Shown: in pieces, positions 6,229-13,816 of the stretch | Layout of the letters: each line of letters starts with the position of its first letter | How positions within the stretch are numbered: the stretch's first letter is position 1 | Virus record (IMG/VR): IMGVR_UViG_2974506496_000001 | Span: 207,183-271,182 of that record | DNA from: a virus | Lineage: Duplodnaviria > Caudoviricetes | DNA: 64,000 bases | Direction: 5' to 3' (one strand) | Program-made: the position numbers and the translations under genes | Notes under the pieces: model-generated | Told to the model about the DNA's origin: nothing | What the model saw: the letters and a program-made list of their open reading frames with translations, nothing else | Databases searched by the model: none

Positions 6229-6669
6229 ATGAAATACGTTTACACTATTATCGCTGTTCTTGGTTTCTCTTTTGCGTCTGTTGCAGTTGCTGCAGATCAA
6301 ACCAAAGTGGTGAAAGGTTGGTACGCCGAATACAACACGGCTTCGGTCCTGTATTCTGCTGGGCCAAAGAAAGGACAAGAATTGACCATGGAATGTGTAT
6401 TAGGTGGTTGGACGTTTGCGTATGCAGACAAGATGGGCGAGGAAGTAAACTCGGTCGATGATGACATGACAATCCTGGTCGACGGTGCAGCGTTTGCTGT
6501 GCCGAAGACTCAGGGTCAGCGTGAGAAGTTATACGCCGCCATTCAGCACGCTAAGAGTGGTATTCAATACAAGACCCACGCCTATGGTGTGTCGGTAGTA
6601 TTCCCAGTGGATGGCTTGGCCGAGATGTTTCGTGACCTGCCGTTTGAAGTCAGCCCGTGCATGAGCTAA
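6229..6669 (+). CDS. Exported/periplasmic hypothetical protein
   Basis: Sec signal peptide MKYVYTIIAVLGFSFASVAVAA-D; two Cys in the mature part. Confidence 0.7.
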   Translation: MKYVYTIIAVLGFSFASVAVAADQTKVVKGWYAEYNTASVLYSAGPKKGQELTMECVLGGWTFAYADKMGEEVNSVDDDMTILVDGAAFAVPKTQGQREKLYAAIQHAKSGIQYKTHAYGVSVVFPVDGLAEMFRDLPFEVSPCMS

Positions 6670-6682
6670 AAGGAAAACAATT

Positions 6683-7384
6683 GTGATGACCCCTACCAAA
6701 CAAATTAAACGCAGCTACCGTCTGATCAAAGTGACTGCCGATGTAACACGGGATAACTGGGTCGGGAAAGACATCGACTTCATTGTTCAGCCCAATAAAG
6801 ACATGATCGACGACACCACACGTGGTGGACCTAATCGCCTGCTCGCGACATACATCGTGCTGGGTAACCGTATTCCTGTAACCGTTAACAGCCATGCGGC
6901 CATTACCCGGGAAGAAGGCTTGCAGGATCTGCAGGTCAGTATTGTCGATGGTCAGTCAAAATACATTGACATCAGTAATGTGCGTTACGTCGTGTCGTGT
7001 GAGTTAGAAGAGCACTTCACCTGCACCCCACCAAAAGAACCTTCGCTACTTGATCAGCTGGTTGGCGGACCAATGGGTGACCCAACCCATATGTTCATTA
7101 TCGATGAAAACTATAACGTCTTTGTCGGCACAGCGAACGATTCACAGGAAGATTATACCTTGGCTGGTCGTCTGATCAGTAACCTCGGTTCTCATGATGC
7201 TGAAGCTAATGATTTGGAGATTATCGGCAGTTATCCTGATGACCAAGGTGACCACTACTACGTCTCCATTGACTGGAACAAGTCATTCATTTCCGGGATT
7301 TCCAACAACGAGAAATGCGAATGGTTTAACCAACTCGATGCACTGGTAGCAATGTTGCTGGAAAAGATTAAAGTTACAGTGTAA
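6683..7384 (+). CDS. Hypothetical protein
   Basis: AAGGA RBS, 233 aa. Confidence 0.7.
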   Translation: MMTPTKQIKRSYRLIKVTADVTRDNWVGKDIDFIVQPNKDMIDDTTRGGPNRLLATYIVLGNRIPVTVNSHAAITREEGLQDLQVSIVDGQSKYIDISNVRYVVSCELEEHFTCTPPKEPSLLDQLVGGPMGDPTHMFIIDENYNVFVGTANDSQEDYTLAGRLISNLGSHDAEANDLEIIGSYPDDQGDHYYVSIDWNKSFISGISNNEKCEWFNQLDALVAMLLEKIKVTV

Positions 7385-8534: not shown

Positions 8535-8981
8535 TTATACCAGGCGCTGAGTTAACTGCGAACTATATTGAATAGCGTGATAGGTCGCAGGTTTCTCAAG
8601 CTGCTCGGTGCAGCGGTAGACCGGGGTCTTCATAAAAGGGCAACCGGCATTCATTAATGCCTCACGGTTGCTGGGCGACTCATCCACGCGAATCACCACA
8701 TCCGTGGACTGGAAGCCAAAGACTTCCCGCTTCGTTGCAGTATATTCTGCATCCAGCACCACGATCTTACGGTTGATCACCAGCTTCACGGCCACCGGGT
8801 ATTTGATTACCAGGTCTGACCCTAAGCCCGCCAAGACAAACTTAATGACAAACTTCTTAAGTCCATTTAGCAACTGACTCTCACTGGCCCAACTTTTAAC
8901 AATCTGCAGCATGTGTGTATTTCCACTCATATAAGGGGAAGTTAAGAAAAGCAACCTGAGGGCCCGTCCGTGATCCCTCAT
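8535..8981 (-). CDS. Hypothetical protein (true start probably a downstream Met)
   Basis: 148-aa ORF co-oriented with the upstream minus-strand operon. Confidence 0.5.
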   Translation of the reverse strand: MRDHGRALRLLFLTSPYMSGNTHMLQIVKSWASESQLLNGLKKFVIKFVLAGLGSDLVIKYPVAVKLVINRKIVVLDAEYTATKREVFGFQSTDVVIRVDESPSNREALMNAGCPFMKTPVYRCTEQLEKPATYHAIQYSSQLTQRLV

Positions 8982-8987
8982 AATGTA

Positions 8988-9452
8988 TTACTTCATACCG
9001 TCCAACTGCTTTTGAAGTTCCTTTAACTGACGGCTTGCATCCGGCGTCTCGGCGTCATGATCTCTGATCGCTTCAATAAACGACTTCCGTTTGCAATAAG
9101 GATACTTCATCCATTTATCAAATGACAAACCAAATTTGCCCAAGATATCCGCACGCAGATATTCGAGCTCATACTTTCGATACCCAACTAACGCCAGCGA
9201 GTCTTCCTGCTCGACCTGTAAGATTAACGAGAGCGGCGAGGTTTCCACGTTATGGTCAATAATCCCAAACGTGTCATCGTAAAGCTCTGTTAATCGAATT
9301 AGTGGATACTCCCAGTTCTCGGTAAGAAACGTGGGGTTTTCTAACGCGACATCCCAGGCATCGGACCGATCACTTTCGGACAGACCGAAATCCCAATGGA
9401 TTAGATGTCGGCTTGATCGAACGTCTGATTCAGTGTATTCGTCATTAGGGTA
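8988..9452 (-). CDS. Putative -1 frameshift extension of the 9401..11020 protein (gpGT-like tail/baseplate chaperone C-terminal part)
   Basis: In the -1 frame, overlapping the 3' end of the upstream gene across a T TTT TTT heptamer; no Met until near its C-terminus; KFGLSFDKWMKYPYCKRKSFIEAI recalls gpT/T4 gp51-like short domains. Confidence 0.6.
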   Translation of the reverse strand, partial: YPNDEYTESDVRSSRHLIHWDFGLSESDRSDAWDVALENPTFLTENWEYPLIRLTELYDDTFGIIDHNVETSPLSLILQVEQEDSLALVGYRKYELEYLRADILGKFGLSFDKWMKYPYCKRKSFIEAIRDHDAETPDASRQLKELQKQLDGMK

Positions 9453-11020
9453 AAAAAAACCCGTGCTACGTTCAGCGGGGTGTATGCCGGGAAGGTGTTG
9501 CTCACCAGCGGTTGACGCGCCTGGCAGTTCGGGCATTTCCAACGCGGTACTGCGACCACACCGACCGTTACCCGGTTGATGAACTTGTTCAGCTCTTCAA
9601 AGAACGGTTTACGCATATCCGGGGTTGCACTGAATTGCTTCAGCAGCAAGGCCACGTCATCGGCCGACTCAACATAGTTGCCATCGTTGAACTCGATCTT
9701 GGTCACCCAGTGGGCGTAACCACGCATGGAGGACAGCGCTGCCTGTTTGTTGATGTGTTGCTCACGCTGCTCACGCGTCATGCTGTCGTTGAAGCTGTCG
9801 GTGATCGCTTGTTGAATGCCGTTGATCCAGGCATAACCCGCTGCATTCTTATCTTCGAGTGATGGCACCCGCAGATAGAACTTCACATCTTTCACAGTGA
9901 TGACATTGTCTTTCATCACTTCAAAGCCGGTCTGATAGGCAACGACCTGCTCGACGGTACGGCCGCTGAAGTGAGACATGTGCGCACGCTGGGTTGGTGA
10001 CAGACGATTGTTGTCAATGATCGACAGACGAGAGACGTTAACTTTCGCTGCTTCAACATGCACACACTTCTTCGGATCGGCGGCACAGGCAGTGACCATG
10101 TGGTAGCCAGACTTAAAGCGTGCGCCCAGGTAGGCGTTAGCGATCAGATCGAGATCCTGCTCTTTGATTAACGGCAGCAGGGTTTTCTTATCGGAGACGC
10201 CGATGCTGCTGTCAGTGACCATACCCAGCAGGAAGTCAGTCATGTGCTTACGCACCACGACATCCAGGTTGTTAAACACCAGACCGTTGGTACGACGACC
10301 GAGGATCGCTTTCTCAGCCATGATGGCGGTTTGCATATCCACAAACTCATCATCACCGGCAATCAGCAACGTAACCCAGATACCAGAATGTGGCAGCGGC
10401 AGATGGACATAGTCACCCATGTTCATCACGCCACGAGCACGCATCACTGCCTGTGGACCGGTCAGCAGTTTAGTGCCTTCGGTACTGCGCTTCACTGGCG
10501 GGCGAGAAACACCCTGCACTTTGTTATTGTCGAGCAGAATACCCTGCAGCCACTGCGCACCATCTTGACGAATGGTCAGGTTCAGACCAGAACGGTACGA
10601 CAGGTTGGTGATGGCGTTACTGGCCAGGGATAGCCAGATCATCGCTTTATCAGCACCGTACAGACTGACGATCTCTTTTAAGATCTTCTTGTCTTCGGTG
10701 TTGGTGTCGATCTCGTTGATCAGCGCCGTCGCTGCATCGTAATCCTGATGCATGATAGACAGCACACCTTCCGTGCCGACATCCTCCATGGAGTTCAGCT
10801 TTTCAATGATCGGGTTCTGATAGAGCGGATCGAACGCCTGCTCAACGGCTTCAACTTCAGGTGCTTCAGCTTCGCCCTGTTGGCTGGTTTCTGCTGGCTC
10901 GGGATCGGTGCCAATAGTACCAGTAGTCGCCGGACGGCCTGGATCAACTTCAGGAATACCAGAGTGGTTTTCTTCAACAGGATCTTGCTGTGACAGAATG
11001 GATGGGTTATCACCGGACAT
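9401..11020 (-). CDS. Conserved phiKZ-like protein with Cys motifs; candidate tail/baseplate-hub assembly chaperone (gpG / T4 gp26-like)
   Basis: 539 aa, AAGG RBS, acidic N-terminus, CAADPKKC and CPNC motifs, slippery site near the 3' end. Confidence 0.55.
   Translation of the reverse strand: MSGDNPSILSQQDPVEENHSGIPEVDPGRPATTGTIGTDPEPAETSQQGEAEAPEVEAVEQAFDPLYQNPIIEKLNSMEDVGTEGVLSIMHQDYDAATALINEIDTNTEDKKILKEIVSLYGADKAMIWLSLASNAITNLSYRSGLNLTIRQDGAQWLQGILLDNNKVQGVSRPPVKRSTEGTKLLTGPQAVMRARGVMNMGDYVHLPLPHSGIWVTLLIAGDDEFVDMQTAIMAEKAILGRRTNGLVFNNLDVVVRKHMTDFLLGMVTDSSIGVSDKKTLLPLIKEQDLDLIANAYLGARFKSGYHMVTACAADPKKCVHVEAAKVNVSRLSIIDNNRLSPTQRAHMSHFSGRTVEQVVAYQTGFEVMKDNVITVKDVKFYLRVPSLEDKNAAGYAWINGIQQAITDSFNDSMTREQREQHINKQAALSSMRGYAHWVTKIEFNDGNYVESADDVALLLKQFSATPDMRKPFFEELNKFINRVTVGVVAVPRWKCPNCQARQPLVSNTFPAYTPLNVARVFFTLMTNTLNQTFDQADI
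9452..9463 (-). other. Slippery sequence CGG GTT TTT TTT (candidate -1 programmed ribosomal frameshift site)
   Basis: Plus strand 9451-9463 reads taaaaaaaacccg; zero frame R-V-F-F-T, -1 frame G-F-F-Y. Confidence 0.65.
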
Positions 11021-11037
11021 TATGCTTATCCTTACCT

Positions 11038-11505
11038 TTACTTTTTAGTGGGGTCGACCTGAACCGGGTCATTGAGTTTGCTTGCTGCGCCAGCGGCAAC
11101 CGCGTTAGCATGGGCACTGTCTGACATGGTCAGAATGGCAGCACCGTGACGCTGCATCGCATCCAGCAATTTACTCTGCAGGACGATGTATTGTTCGTGC
11201 ACACTGAGGAAGTCAGCGATGGTGCTGTCATGCAAGGCATAACCGGTTTTGCCTTGATGCTGCTGCTTGATCATCGGCAGTGTTTCATCGATCTCTTTGA
11301 CTACAGCCAGCGCCGCTTCGATGTGCGAGCTTAACGCAGAGGGGTTTGGCTGAAAGCGAATGATGTTGGTGTTGACGGCCATGAGACAAGTATTGCTCAG
11401 CTCATTGCGCAAATTAATCGTATAAGTTGCCGCAGAATCCAGGTACTCCCAGAACTGATCGGGCTGATGGACCTCTGGTGCGAGAGGCGGTTCATTGGTT
11501 GACAT
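11038..11505 (-). CDS. Conserved hypothetical protein (helical)
   Basis: AAGGA RBS, 155 aa, first gene of the minus-strand operon. Confidence 0.7.
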   Translation of the reverse strand: MSTNEPPLAPEVHQPDQFWEYLDSAATYTINLRNELSNTCLMAVNTNIIRFQPNPSALSSHIEAALAVVKEIDETLPMIKQQHQGKTGYALHDSTIADFLSVHEQYIVLQSKLLDAMQRHGAAILTMSDSAHANAVAAGAASKLNDPVQVDPTKK

Positions 11506-11597: not shown

Positions 11598-12509
11598 ATG
11601 AGTGATTTTACTGACTTAACGAAATTGAAGACCGAATTACCACAAAACATCCAAAAGATTGATGAGCAGGATGATGTGGGTGACTTCAGCGATCTTAACG
11701 ACTACCTCATGACCATCATTCCGGATGAACGGCGTGAGCGCTTGATCGCGATCTGTCAAAACTTGAGCACCCTGCAGTATCATCAAGTCCAGCCCGATGT
11801 GGATCGGTTACTAATGATGGCCAACGACGGTGAAGCGCCTTCGGTGCTCGATGACTTGACCCGGTTGTTATTTGAACACGCTTATGACTTAACGAAAAAC
11901 ATGGGCTTTAACTGGGCTGATGAGATTGAGTTTGATCAGCTGTTCCTGCTCGGTGATGTAATCGAAGGTGCCATGTTGATTGATGGCATGGAAGACTACG
12001 GCGACCTCTCAGCGATCCTGGATGGGGATGACTCAGTTGAAGAGAAGGTGGTGGATATCTGGGGTCTGGTGCTCGACAAAGACATGCACCATCTGTTTGA
12101 ACAGATCCAGTCCATCGAACCGGCGGTGATCAGCGGGATCAAGCAAGTCACGACCCGACCGTATGCCGAAGACGATTATGCAGATGTGCAACGTCCACTT
12201 GAGTTTGTGGTTGAGCGGTTGGTGAAAGTCCGTGAAATGATGAAGACCGATGGCATTGCTTACCAGCACGTGGCCAAGGGTGGCGCCTTAGGCGTTGAGC
12301 TCGATTCACTGATCACGCTCTACACCCCTGAGCTGAATGCCGTGACCGACCCGATCGAACTGACCGACCTGCTGGTTGCCTTTACCCTGATCAGCAACAC
12401 CCCAGATGGTTTGGTGAAATCCACCGCATCCCGGCTGGCAGAAAAATGGATTGATGATATCGAAGTCATCAATGTGGTAGGTAAACATATCGACAGGTAT
12501 CCCGTGTGA
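11598..12509 (+). CDS. Acidic conserved protein upstream of the vRNAP subunit (probable virion protein)
   Basis: 303 aa; GTGA overlap with the RNAP gene; phiKZ-like synteny. Confidence 0.65.
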   Translation: MSDFTDLTKLKTELPQNIQKIDEQDDVGDFSDLNDYLMTIIPDERRERLIAICQNLSTLQYHQVQPDVDRLLMMANDGEAPSVLDDLTRLLFEHAYDLTKNMGFNWADEIEFDQLFLLGDVIEGAMLIDGMEDYGDLSAILDGDDSVEEKVVDIWGLVLDKDMHHLFEQIQSIEPAVISGIKQVTTRPYAEDDYADVQRPLEFVVERLVKVREMMKTDGIAYQHVAKGGALGVELDSLITLYTPELNAVTDPIELTDLLVAFTLISNTPDGLVKSTASRLAEKWIDDIEVINVVGKHIDRYPV

Positions 12510-13816
12510 ATATTCGCGACTATTTAATCATGGCCTTTCGGGCAGGGGCTTACAAGCAACGCCAGTGGGTGTTGAGTGTCATGAGTATCACCCAGACCCC
12601 GGATGGTAAATCCGTAGCAGACAGTATGATCCCGTATCAGGCACACCGCATCAACATCGGCGCGACCCTCGATTGGGCTTACTGGGACGACTTCAACAAA
12701 ACCTTTGTGCCGATTGAGGGAGTGGATGTTAACTTCCCGTTGTTTCGACCCGAGGATCAATACACACTACAACCTGGGGATTTTGCCAATGTCACTGAAG
12801 AAGTTACTACTACTTTCGGCCGTATTCTGGCTAACCATTATTATTTTATCGATGTGGTCGGTGAACGTGTCCCATTTCAGAACGTAGAATTCAACCGTGG
12901 GATGTTGGAGAAGATCTACAAGGCCCGGGTATTAGAAGACGCCCAGGACTTGCGGCGTTCTGATCCGTTCTACCTGACCGTCGATGAATTCAAACGCTCA
13001 GTGGATAATGGCTTTGCCTTGGGTGGGTTGTCGAAACTTTGTGTACCGACTGCTTGTCCGGAAACCATGTATCCGCCGAAGTTCATCATCGAGATGCGTG
13101 ACCGTCTGTTTGAAGAACACAAGGATGAGCTCAACAACCCGGTGGTCATGGGGCGTATTCAGGATGAGCTGTTAAAGCACTATCGTGAGTTCCTGATGTC
13201 CACCCCGTCAGCCAAGTTCTTTGTGATCAAGAAGACCATCGACCAGGCCTTCAACAACATGTTCCTGACCGGTGGTATTGCGGGGGCTTTTGGTGGTAAC
13301 ACTGTTATTACCAACTCGCTGTACGAAGGCTGGAACCTGAAGAACTTCCCGGCGTTAGTGAATGGCTCTATCGAAGCTTCCTTTGACCGCGGTGCGGCTA
13401 CAGCCGATGGCGGCGAGAAAGTGAAGATGTTGATCCGTGCCACGCAGAACATCCGTATCACCGATGATGATTGCGGCACCCAGCTCGGGGTACCGTGGGT
13501 GATTGAAGATGCCGGCAAGGCACGCTTCATTAACTCTTACATACTGGATAAGGGTGTGACGATTCTGTTAACTCCGGAGAACATTGATAAGTTCGTCGGT
13601 AAGCCGGTCATGACCCGTTCACCCAGCTTCTGTAAGAAATCCCATGGCGACTCCTGTAAGTTCTGCGTCGGTGCGCATAACGCCACCAACCCACGCGGGA
13701 TGTCTTCCGGTACCTCGAAGATCGGTTCTACCCTGATGTTGTTATCGATGAAAGCGATGCATAAAGGCAGTAAGATCGATCTGATCGAGTATAACCTTGA
13801 TGAGGTCTTTAACTGA
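12506..13816 (+). CDS. Virion RNA polymerase beta-prime subunit, middle fragment (phiKZ gp80-like)
   Basis: RGAATADGG, ITDDDCGT and RSPSFC...CKFCVG match the RpoC bridge-helix and Zn-site region; fragment size fits the split phiKZ-type vRNAP. Confidence 0.85.
   Translation: MNIRDYLIMAFRAGAYKQRQWVLSVMSITQTPDGKSVADSMIPYQAHRINIGATLDWAYWDDFNKTFVPIEGVDVNFPLFRPEDQYTLQPGDFANVTEEVTTTFGRILANHYYFIDVVGERVPFQNVEFNRGMLEKIYKARVLEDAQDLRRSDPFYLTVDEFKRSVDNGFALGGLSKLCVPTACPETMYPPKFIIEMRDRLFEEHKDELNNPVVMGRIQDELLKHYREFLMSTPSAKFFVIKKTIDQAFNNMFLTGGIAGAFGGNTVITNSLYEGWNLKNFPALVNGSIEASFDRGAATADGGEKVKMLIRATQNIRITDDDCGTQLGVPWVIEDAGKARFINSYILDKGVTILLTPENIDKFVGKPVMTRSPSFCKKSHGDSCKFCVGAHNATNPRGMSSGTSKIGSTLMLLSMKAMHKGSKIDLIEYNLDEVFN

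Follow-up and report, generated by a model that had tools for sequence, protein, structure and literature searches.

The 64,000-nucleotide stretch of viral DNA analysed here (the window) carries, on its minus strand, an open reading frame (ORF) of 539 codons (9401..11020) that encodes a homologue of phiKZ gp77. Judging from comparisons of related sequences, the 3' end of this gene holds a real, family-wide, and unannotated recoding site in a core gene, and a fusion protein of 677 amino acids is its predicted product.

Around the site, the minus strand reads GTA GCA CGG GTT TTT TTT ACC CTA ATG. The codons CGG GTT TTT TTT ACC (9463-9449) encode Arg520, Val521, Phe522, Phe523, and Thr524 of the 539-amino-acid protein (the short form). 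The run of eight T's (T8; 9452..9459, minus strand) contains the heptamer T TTT TTT at 9458-9452, made of the last base of the Val521 codon and the codons for Phe522 and Phe523, so it has the slippery form X XXY YYZ in the zero frame. After the run, the zero frame has 16 sense codons (Thr524 to Ile539) and then a TAA at 9401-9403. The -1 frame is open through the run and continues (8988..9452, minus strand) for 154 codons, YPNDEYTESDVR...QLDGMK (that is, YPNDEY...DGMK), with a TAA at 8990-8988. A one-base backward slip would give ...VARVFF-YPNDEY..., with 523 + 154 = 677 residues, and the -1-frame continuation would form residues 524-677 of this long form. The predicted junction peptide of the long form is VFFYPNDEYTESDVR (cleavage after Arg520). 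The two frames overlap for 51 nucleotides (9401..9451, minus strand), which encode Thr524-Ile539 and the stop in frame 0 and the first 17 codons after the slip in frame -1.

An initial annotation of this DNA had described the in-frame slippery site 16 sense codons before the stop, the -1 frame open for 154 codons to 8988, and a slip product of about 677 amino acids, and rereading the sequence confirmed each of these. It had also placed the TTG at 9542 inside the upstream gene, which is correct. This TTG and an ATG at 9536 (9534..9542, minus strand) are in the -1 frame and are annotated-style starts for a "separate" downstream gene of 184 or 182 amino acids. (The annotated form of this gene is Deimos-Minion gp272.) On the 3' side of the run, the first ATG, GTG, or TTG in the -1 frame of the window is 68 codons downstream.

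Conservation of the site and of both frames

We then read the 3' ends of this gene in 43 distinct loci, including the window. Seventeen of them are from named phage records (AH06, Deimos-Minion, Salmonella SA002, Erwinia pEa_SNUABM_37, Proteus phage 10, PhiPA3, 201phi2-1, phiKZ-type PA_ZH1, Bacillus AgentSmith, Seoulvirus SPFM17, Asesino, Vibrio BONAISHI, Halocynthia phage JM-2012, Serratia Haymo, Salmonella SPLA10, Ralstonia RSF1, and Klebsiella Eowyn) and the rest are from IMG/VR and metagenome contigs. Protein identity across these loci falls to 18-29%. All 43, from phiKZ-like phages to metagenomic lineages, have a run of six to eight T's on conserved Phe-Phe codons (Phe-Leu or Val-Phe in a few). 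The run is T8 in 22 loci, T7 in 13, and T6 in eight. The zero-frame codons are mostly NNT TTT TTT, with NNT TTT TTA in three loci and NNT TTT TTC in another three; both variants (T_TTT_TTA and T_TTT_TTC) still obey the X XXY YYZ rule. In six of the T6 loci, the codons are NNG TTT TTT. As for the others, L031 reads GTT TTT TAC and has only the tetramer T_TTT, and L032 is among the TTA loci.

Both frames are conserved around the run. The T run and the -1 overlap are kept in all 43 loci, with the zero-frame stop 8-44 sense codons past the run and a -1 ORF of 149-172 codons that continues from it. In most of the loci, the -1 frame opens just 3-24 codons 5' of the run. Upstream of the run, the -1 frame contains an ATG, GTG, or TTG in only three loci (the window, the near-identical Deimos-Minion, and RSF1), and the other 40 lack one. 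AH06, which has about 80% nucleotide identity to the window, lacks such a start. The first -1-frame start after the run is 8-108 codons in, at inconsistent positions within conserved sequence, and the tails predicted by gene callers vary accordingly: they are 72-186 amino acids long and start anywhere from residue 12 to residue 89 of the -1 frame. In other words, a conserved -1 ORF continues past the run and has no conserved start of its own. (In Serratia phage Haymo and Salmonella phage SPLA10, the zero frame extends 37 and 44 codons beyond the run, as compared to 8-21 elsewhere, so the dual-coded overlap exceeds 110 nucleotides there.)

Elsewhere in these ORFs, TTT makes up just 9-31% of the Phe codons in several lineages (0.09 in L043, 0.10 in PhiPA3, 0.18-0.21 in the SA002 group, and 0.31 in the window), and both Phe codons at the site are nonetheless TTT. 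A second run of six or more T's upstream of the site was found in none of the 31 homologous ORFs that we checked. Using one lineage per major clade (TTT shares of 0.31, 0.21, 0.50, 0.10, 0.36, 0.42, 0.56, 0.21, and 0.39), the chance of TTT at both codons in all nine lineages is roughly 5e-10, a rough figure that assumes independence. Because the layout is found in 43/43 loci, because there is no second run in 31 ORFs, and because TTT is otherwise uncommon in several lineages, the pattern is far beyond chance. Thus, the site is kept in position and in frame among diverged relatives and against codon bias, and codon usage indicates that the choice of Phe codon here is under selection.

The overlap also shows the signature of dual coding. 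At moderate distances between loci, the nucleotide identity of the 51-nucleotide overlap, as compared to its two flanks, is 0.94 versus 0.75 and 0.75 between the window and AH06, 0.88 versus 0.68 and 0.73 between the window and L012, and 0.92 versus 0.67 and 0.63 between AH06 and L012. Two superimposed coding constraints predict exactly such a pattern. Among contigs from four independent runs, none of the 19 substitution sites within 8900-9900 of the window falls in 9061-9484, a segment that holds the slip site, the overlap, and most of the -1 tail.

The tail that is encoded in the -1 frame corresponds to phrog_13274 and phrog_12109. Among relatives with 40-49% identity, the homology of the tail in tblastn starts at the first codon after the run. 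In the window, the motifs of the tail are h.FG, ELYDDxFGIxDH, SPLSL, QED, GLSFDxWMxYP, and a charged, helix-like C-terminal end; across the family, these become h.FG, ELY[DE]xx[FY]GIxDH, PL, [QS]E[DK], [LM]SFxx[FW]..P, and a charged C-terminal segment. The initial annotation had likened the GLSFDKWMKYP..KR part of the tail to the T4 proteins gp26 and gp51, and this likeness was not supported: hhalign gives probabilities below 1% for the tail against gp26, gp51, or the C-terminus of gp51. We also rejected the assignment of the tail to "Gp51_C" or "P2 GpE", as these are weak language-model leads (ESM, 0.82 each) at the level of chance.

The site is marked in none of the genome records that we examined. 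In their annotations, the tail overlaps the upstream gene or a gap of about 200 nucleotides is left. For instance, gene-free gaps of about this size follow the gp77 homologue in AH06 (4324-4526 of L001), PA_ZH1 (2680-2897 of L009), and AgentSmith (2785-2999 of L010). After these gaps, the records call a gene of 68-80 amino acids from an internal ATG, and the gaps contain the conserved N-terminal half of the -1 domain. If the long form is made by a slip, then the small downstream "gene" of the public records would be the 3' part of the long form. We found no description of a frameshift for phiKZ, gp77, Chimalliviridae, 201phi2-1, or SPN3US in the full-text literature, with most subscription journals outside the scope of this search. 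(The "gp77" of the papers that we did find refers to genes of other phages.)

Identity of the gene and predicted fold of its product

The 539-amino-acid protein belongs to phrog_4585 (E = 7e-189), and tblastn finds it in 211 phage records, all of them from phiKZ-like jumbo phages. According to notes in the records, its homologues are phiKZ gp77, 201phi2-1 gp136, PhiPA3 gp074, and EL gp47. On the evidence of homology and synteny, ORF 9401..11020 represents, in Agricanvirus, the core gene cg18 of Chimalliviridae (the phiKZ gp77 family). In Table S3 of Prichard et al. 2023 (PMC10299810), cg18 is listed as Goslar gp081, phiKZ gp077, and RAY gp267, is described as a "hypothetical protein", and is not marked as unique to chimallin-encoding phages. 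(In RAY, the gp181-type lysozyme-domain protein is gp162, according to the same table.) As for the phage itself, four jumbo phages of Erwinia amylovora (MadMel, Rebecca, Desertfox, and Deimos-Minion) share 98-99% identity with the window, and the E. billingiae phage AH06 has about 80-81% nucleotide identity to it. All five are in the genus Agricanvirus, and by these identities the window is from an Erwinia jumbo phage of that genus.

The neighboring genes are arranged as in phiKZ. A gp78 homologue (11038..11505, minus strand) is followed by a divergently transcribed homologue of gp79, a virion protein (11598..12509, plus strand), and by a gp80-type RNA polymerase subunit (12506..13816, plus strand).

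The conserved core of the 539-amino-acid protein spans residues 129-539, approximately. Residues 1 to about 120 are acidic and proline-rich and were modelled with low confidence. This N-terminal part (10664-11020 in the window) is rich in Pro, Glu, and Thr, with a predicted local distance difference test score (pLDDT) of around 30; it differs in length and sequence even between close relatives, and it is much longer in the phrog_8054 lineages (phiEaH2-type, 686 amino acids).

Our first structure model, from 13 close sequences, had a pLDDT of 46 and was replaced. When we modelled the core (residues 120-539) from 34 sequences, including diverged relatives from IMG/VR and metagenomes, the pLDDT was 78.9 and the predicted template modelling score (pTM) was 0.81. 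Foldseek searches of this model against BFVD first return the protein's own family, down to 11% identity. Ranks 19-50 are mostly T4-like proteins of 216-285 amino acids, annotated as "baseplate hub assembly protein, bacteriophage T4-like", "baseplate hub subunit", or "baseplate hub assembly chaperone". These matches compare predicted models to predicted models and have E values from 3e-7 to 7e-3, probabilities of 0.97-1.00, and target-normalised TM scores of 0.50-0.57. Similarly, an ESM-Atlas feature search gives, at rank 20, a cluster in which 24% of the members belong to PF12322 (the T4_baseplate family), and two annotations agree: "baseplate protein" in AH06 and "putative baseplate hub assembly protein" in AgentSmith. 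Among solved structures, nothing matches the core above noise (PDB, Foldseek, VIA-wide). Pfam has no family at E <= 1 for the 539-amino-acid protein, and sequence searches of both parts against Pfam, NCBIfam, and the PDB gave nothing meaningful. (A match to Tako8 in the PDB sequence search is a repeat artefact.) Overall, the models support the view that the core (approximately residues 200-525) has the fold that is predicted for T4 gp26 and gp51.

In the family alignment, four cysteines are invariant. Cys312 and Cys319 form the first pair, C-x6-C in ACAADPKKC (10064..10087, minus strand), and Cys496 and Cys499 form the second, C-x-x-C in WKCPNCQ (9524..9535, minus strand). The four probably form a zinc site. 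By eye, both the gp26/gp51 families and the jumbo-phage core seem to consist of a tandemly duplicated module with two strands, helices, and a Cys pair. By fold, entire small proteins of the gp26/gp51 type superpose on the core. In hhalign, the C-terminal half of the jumbo-phage core resembles the N-terminal half of gp26/gp51 (T4 proteins at L011:5803-6429 and 6480-7229, compared to 9401-10420 of the window).

The model also shows what the slip would change. The C-terminal helix of the core (model residues 399-417, or residues 518-536 of the protein) holds the residues after the slip, so the long form would replace most of this helix, from residue 524 onward.

As for function, the modelled fold makes an assembly factor for the tail baseplate or hub, not itself part of the virion, the most likely role. 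The preprint on the structure of the Goslar virion, with a composite model of 28 different proteins, does not mention Goslar gp081 in its text, and the record for 201phi2-1 gp136 has no mass-spectrometry note, while its neighbor gp138 has one. Both observations fit a non-structural assembly factor. In the phiKZ data of PMC12571901, PHIKZ077 appears with 0-2 counts only. The antisense oligomers against PHIKZ077 are marked "tox" in that study and hence are uninformative about essentiality. We infer that cg18 may encode the tail chaperone of this group of phages, as the initial annotation had suggested.

How the long form could be made

We propose that most ribosomes would stop at the TAA at 9401-9403 and release the 539-amino-acid protein. 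A fraction of them would slip back by one base at U UUU UUU (9458-9452), with both tRNA-Phe re-paired to UUU, and would go on to read UAC CCU AAU and so forth. This would add the conserved 154-amino-acid domain and yield the 677-amino-acid long form, in which the last 16 residues of the short form (part of the terminal helix of the core) are exchanged for the new domain. The short form would then be the bulk chaperone, and the long form, with an adaptor domain, would be present in a fixed lower amount. (The idea that the tail is an adaptor in sub-stoichiometric amount is drawn by analogy to G/GT of lambda.) The family-wide in-frame site, the homology of the -1 frame from the run onward, the lack of a conserved independent start, and the nucleotide conservation of the overlap all support a programmed -1 shift. 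Given this evidence, we consider slippage by the ribosome at the run to be likely. The entire explanation, in which cg18 has a ribosomal -1 slip, makes a short and a long form, has a gp26/gp51-like fold, and acts as an assembly factor for the tail baseplate or hub, also seems probable to us.

The initial annotation had noted that there is no obvious stimulatory hairpin, and our analyses agree. Folds and alignments of the loci reveal neither a conserved stimulatory hairpin nor a conserved upstream Shine-Dalgarno-like element. The fold of the 70 nucleotides after the run has a z score of -1.2 in the window and from -3.8 to +1.3 across the loci, and is no better than shuffled sequences in most lineages. 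In alignment folds downstream of the run, covariation is almost nil. Rfam has no match at the site, a promoter scan was also empty, and a terminator scan found no terminator-like site on the minus strand between 9401 and 8988. Two candidate hairpins could not be called as stimulators. One lies about 39 nucleotides past the run in the window's clade, where covariation is too low. The other, CUCUCCGU...AUGGAGAG, lies about 10 nucleotides past the run in an AT-rich clade from metagenomes and IMG/VR (L013:2620-2660, L029:2695-2735, and L041:2689-2729); it has too little covariation as well and is absent from the window's clade. (The z scores of the 70-nucleotide folds are -2.0 to -2.5 in L013, L029, and L041 and -3.8 in L038. 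In L041, one pair of the hairpin is changed on both sides, from U-A to G-C, and each change is synonymous in the zero frame.)

Several observations weigh against this explanation, and the lack of a conserved stimulatory element is one of them. At the site, eight of the 43 loci have only six T's, and most of these read G_TTT_TTT, a heptamer that is imperfect for the tRNA in the P site. The Phe-Phe residues alone could set the frame of the run, and a run of T's is also a classic substrate for slippage by RNA polymerase. In the window, unlike in most of its relatives, the -1 frame has a TTG and an ATG located 26-28 codons before the run. For the fold, PF12322 does not match the window's protein or eight homologues even at E <= 10, and NCBIfam has no relevant family for the proteins that we tested. 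(PF12322 does not match anything else in the genome either, but this is weak evidence because it also finds nothing in the control genomes.) When the core is compared by hhalign, the probability is 12-50% against a 49-sequence alignment of gp26 and 32-64% against gp51, with an ambiguous register, while the control comparison of gp26 to gp51 gives 98.8%. The ambiguous register may arise because both families are perhaps internally duplicated. And the function of T4 gp26 and gp51 is itself only loosely known. So, the likeness of the upstream protein to T4 gp26/gp51 that the initial annotation had claimed stands at the level of predicted folds, as seen in BFVD, while PF12322 does not match and the profile-profile comparison is no more than suggestive. 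Because the fold appears to be shared but PF12322 does not match, we describe the core as a distant, enlarged structural relative of gp26/gp51 and not as a member of the family.

Could the two frames simply be one broken gene, or two ordinary ones? Homopolymers are error-prone in some sequencing chemistries, and an error or a recent frameshift mutation might have split a single gene of 677 codons. This is extremely improbable, as the identical split recurs across independent isolates, IMG/VR, and metagenomes, in 43 distinct loci altogether. Also, the T run is covered by Logan contigs of four sequencing runs, each from a different study; none of the contigs has an insertion or deletion there, and all of them have T8 and not nine T's. 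These contigs differ from the window by 7-13 substitutions per kb, and their sources are phage isolates and plant, phyllosphere, and soil metagenomes. As independent assemblies from four studies agree, a sequencing error is excluded. The fused frame is absent from every relative that we examined: protein searches with either part found no single fused ORF among the homologues, with large proteins of 539-558 amino acids and tails of at most 186. Finally, the zero-frame C-terminal peptide past the run is conserved and is modelled as a helix. Alternatively, the downstream frame might be an ordinary gene, translated from the TTG at 9542, the ATG at 9536, or an internal start, with the T run being just a conserved Phe-Phe. 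The upstream starts in the window, the separate genes that are annotated in public records, and a TTG that overlaps the upstream stop in 201phi2-1 are all in line with this. Yet 40/43 loci have no -1-frame start upstream of the run, including AH06 despite its similarity to the window; the first later start lies 8-108 codons into conserved sequence, at inconsistent positions; and we saw, by eye, no Shine-Dalgarno-like sequence at the usual distance before the ATG at 9536. Two ordinary genes would also leave unexplained why the site retains TTT TTT where Phe is otherwise preferentially encoded by TTC and why the -1 frame opens a few codons before the run. We consider two separate genes to be very unlikely.

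A more serious alternative is that RNA polymerase, from the phage or the host, stutters on the T run and adds one U to some of the mRNAs. Because the signal is a homopolymer, this would yield the same 677-amino-acid fusion. All 43 loci have a homopolymer of 6-8 T's, which is a known substrate; RNA structure of the kind that typically stimulates ribosomal frameshifting is not conserved; and the later genes of Chimalliviridae are transcribed by their own divergent multisubunit RNA polymerase. On the other hand, efficient slippage with bacterial RNA polymerase involves runs of about nine, and the run is shorter than that in the eight T6 loci and the 13 T7 loci. The run is always placed so as to permit a tandem or single shift of tRNA-Phe, and T_TTT_TTA and T_TTT_TTC keep the heptamer rule yet shorten the pure run. 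Both the lineages with T6 or T7 and the variants that preserve the heptamer speak for the ribosome, and it is probably the ribosome that slips; slippage by RNA polymerase seems unlikely. (The contigs show no length variation at the run, but they are consensus sequences of DNA and so are silent on slippage by RNA polymerase.)

Recoding at cg18 would have practical consequences. The locus would be mis-annotated, with a spurious small gene or an empty gap, in every genome record that we examined, and proteomic and genetic screens would have used the wrong protein database for the long form. The phage would depend on a set ratio of the two forms, and mutants that are locked in one form would give a direct handle on function. 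Few phages are studied as intensively as the phiKZ-like nucleus-forming ones, which serve as models for cell biology and as candidates for therapy. No function is assigned to cg18, which belongs to their roughly 70 core genes.

Comparison with known two-form proteins

The arrangement at cg18 resembles gpG/gpGT of lambda and E/E+E' of P2: in each of these, and probably at cg18, a morphogenesis gene has a slippery heptamer at its 3' end, and a -1 shift by a minority of ribosomes swaps a short C-terminus for an extra domain. As with G/GT, the two forms would have a common N-terminal body, the arrangement is kept despite divergence of the sequence, and the proteins are probably absent from the virion. 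However, we found no match in sequence or fold between the cg18 protein and the G or tail assembly chaperone (TAC) families. No TAC rises above noise in the BFVD and PDB searches (the HK97 TAC is at rank 39 with a Z of 3.6). The body of the cg18 protein, with 539 amino acids as compared to about 140, is about four times larger; it has the -1 shift near the 3' end, though not the small body (approximately 100-150 amino acids) or the tube and tape-measure gene context of the lambda type. G/GT lies between the tube and tape-measure genes, whereas cg18 adjoins the homologues of gp78, gp79, and the virion RNA polymerase. The slippery sequence of cg18 is U-rich, while that of lambda is G GGA AAG. 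Because no homology was found (no Pfam family at E <= 1), the body is four times larger, and the gene neighbors differ, membership of cg18 in the lambda G/GT family, to which the initial annotation had compared it, is not supported.

The slip itself also resembles that of gene 10A/10B of T7, where a -1 shift on a U-rich site (G GUU UUC) near the stop leads to a minor, C-terminally extended form. In T7, though, this is a capsid protein with a short extension, and in cg18 a likely assembly factor would gain a conserved domain of about 155 amino acids, the size of a folded unit.

By predicted fold, the closest comparison is to T4 gp26 (208 amino acids) and gp51 (249 amino acids), which belong to PF12322 and which NCBI names "gp26 family baseplate hub assembly chaperone". 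BFVD models of this family match the cg18 core in predicted fold, and T4 gp26 has two Cys pairs, as the cg18 core does. By eye, the strand motif DIKIKFRYPKIFDDKN in gp26 resembles DVKFYLRVPSLEDKN in the cg18 protein, and both have a CPxC...FF.L ending. The proposed frameshift in cg18 is exactly on that FF, and T4 gp26 ends three residues past its FF, where the jumbo-phage gene would shift frame. Also, T4 gene 26 has two products (26 and 26'). There are differences: the cg18 protein is over twice their length and has insertions and a long N-terminus that is disordered, and T4 uses two paralogous genes and an internal start and has no frameshift.

The mechanism of T4 gp26 and gp51 has been open for decades. 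We tentatively suggest, as a speculative extension of the comparison, that cg18 encodes one hub-assembly chaperone whose short form is gp26-like and whose long form is gp51-like, made at a fixed ratio from one mRNA, and that the -1 domain is an adaptor that docks the chaperone on a partner such as the hub, the tube initiator, or the tape measure. If this is true, then the frameshift would be the jumbo phages' answer to a task that T4 handles with two paralogous genes, and cg18 would fill, in the contractile tails of phiKZ-like phages, the functional place of the G/GT tail assembly chaperone, for which a counterpart has been missing. The logic of making two forms by recoding would have arisen independently in an unrelated chaperone fold. 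Together, the recoding and the link to the gp26/gp51 fold suggest that a two-form assembly chaperone may be a general requirement for assembling long tails, here met with a fold other than that of G/GT.

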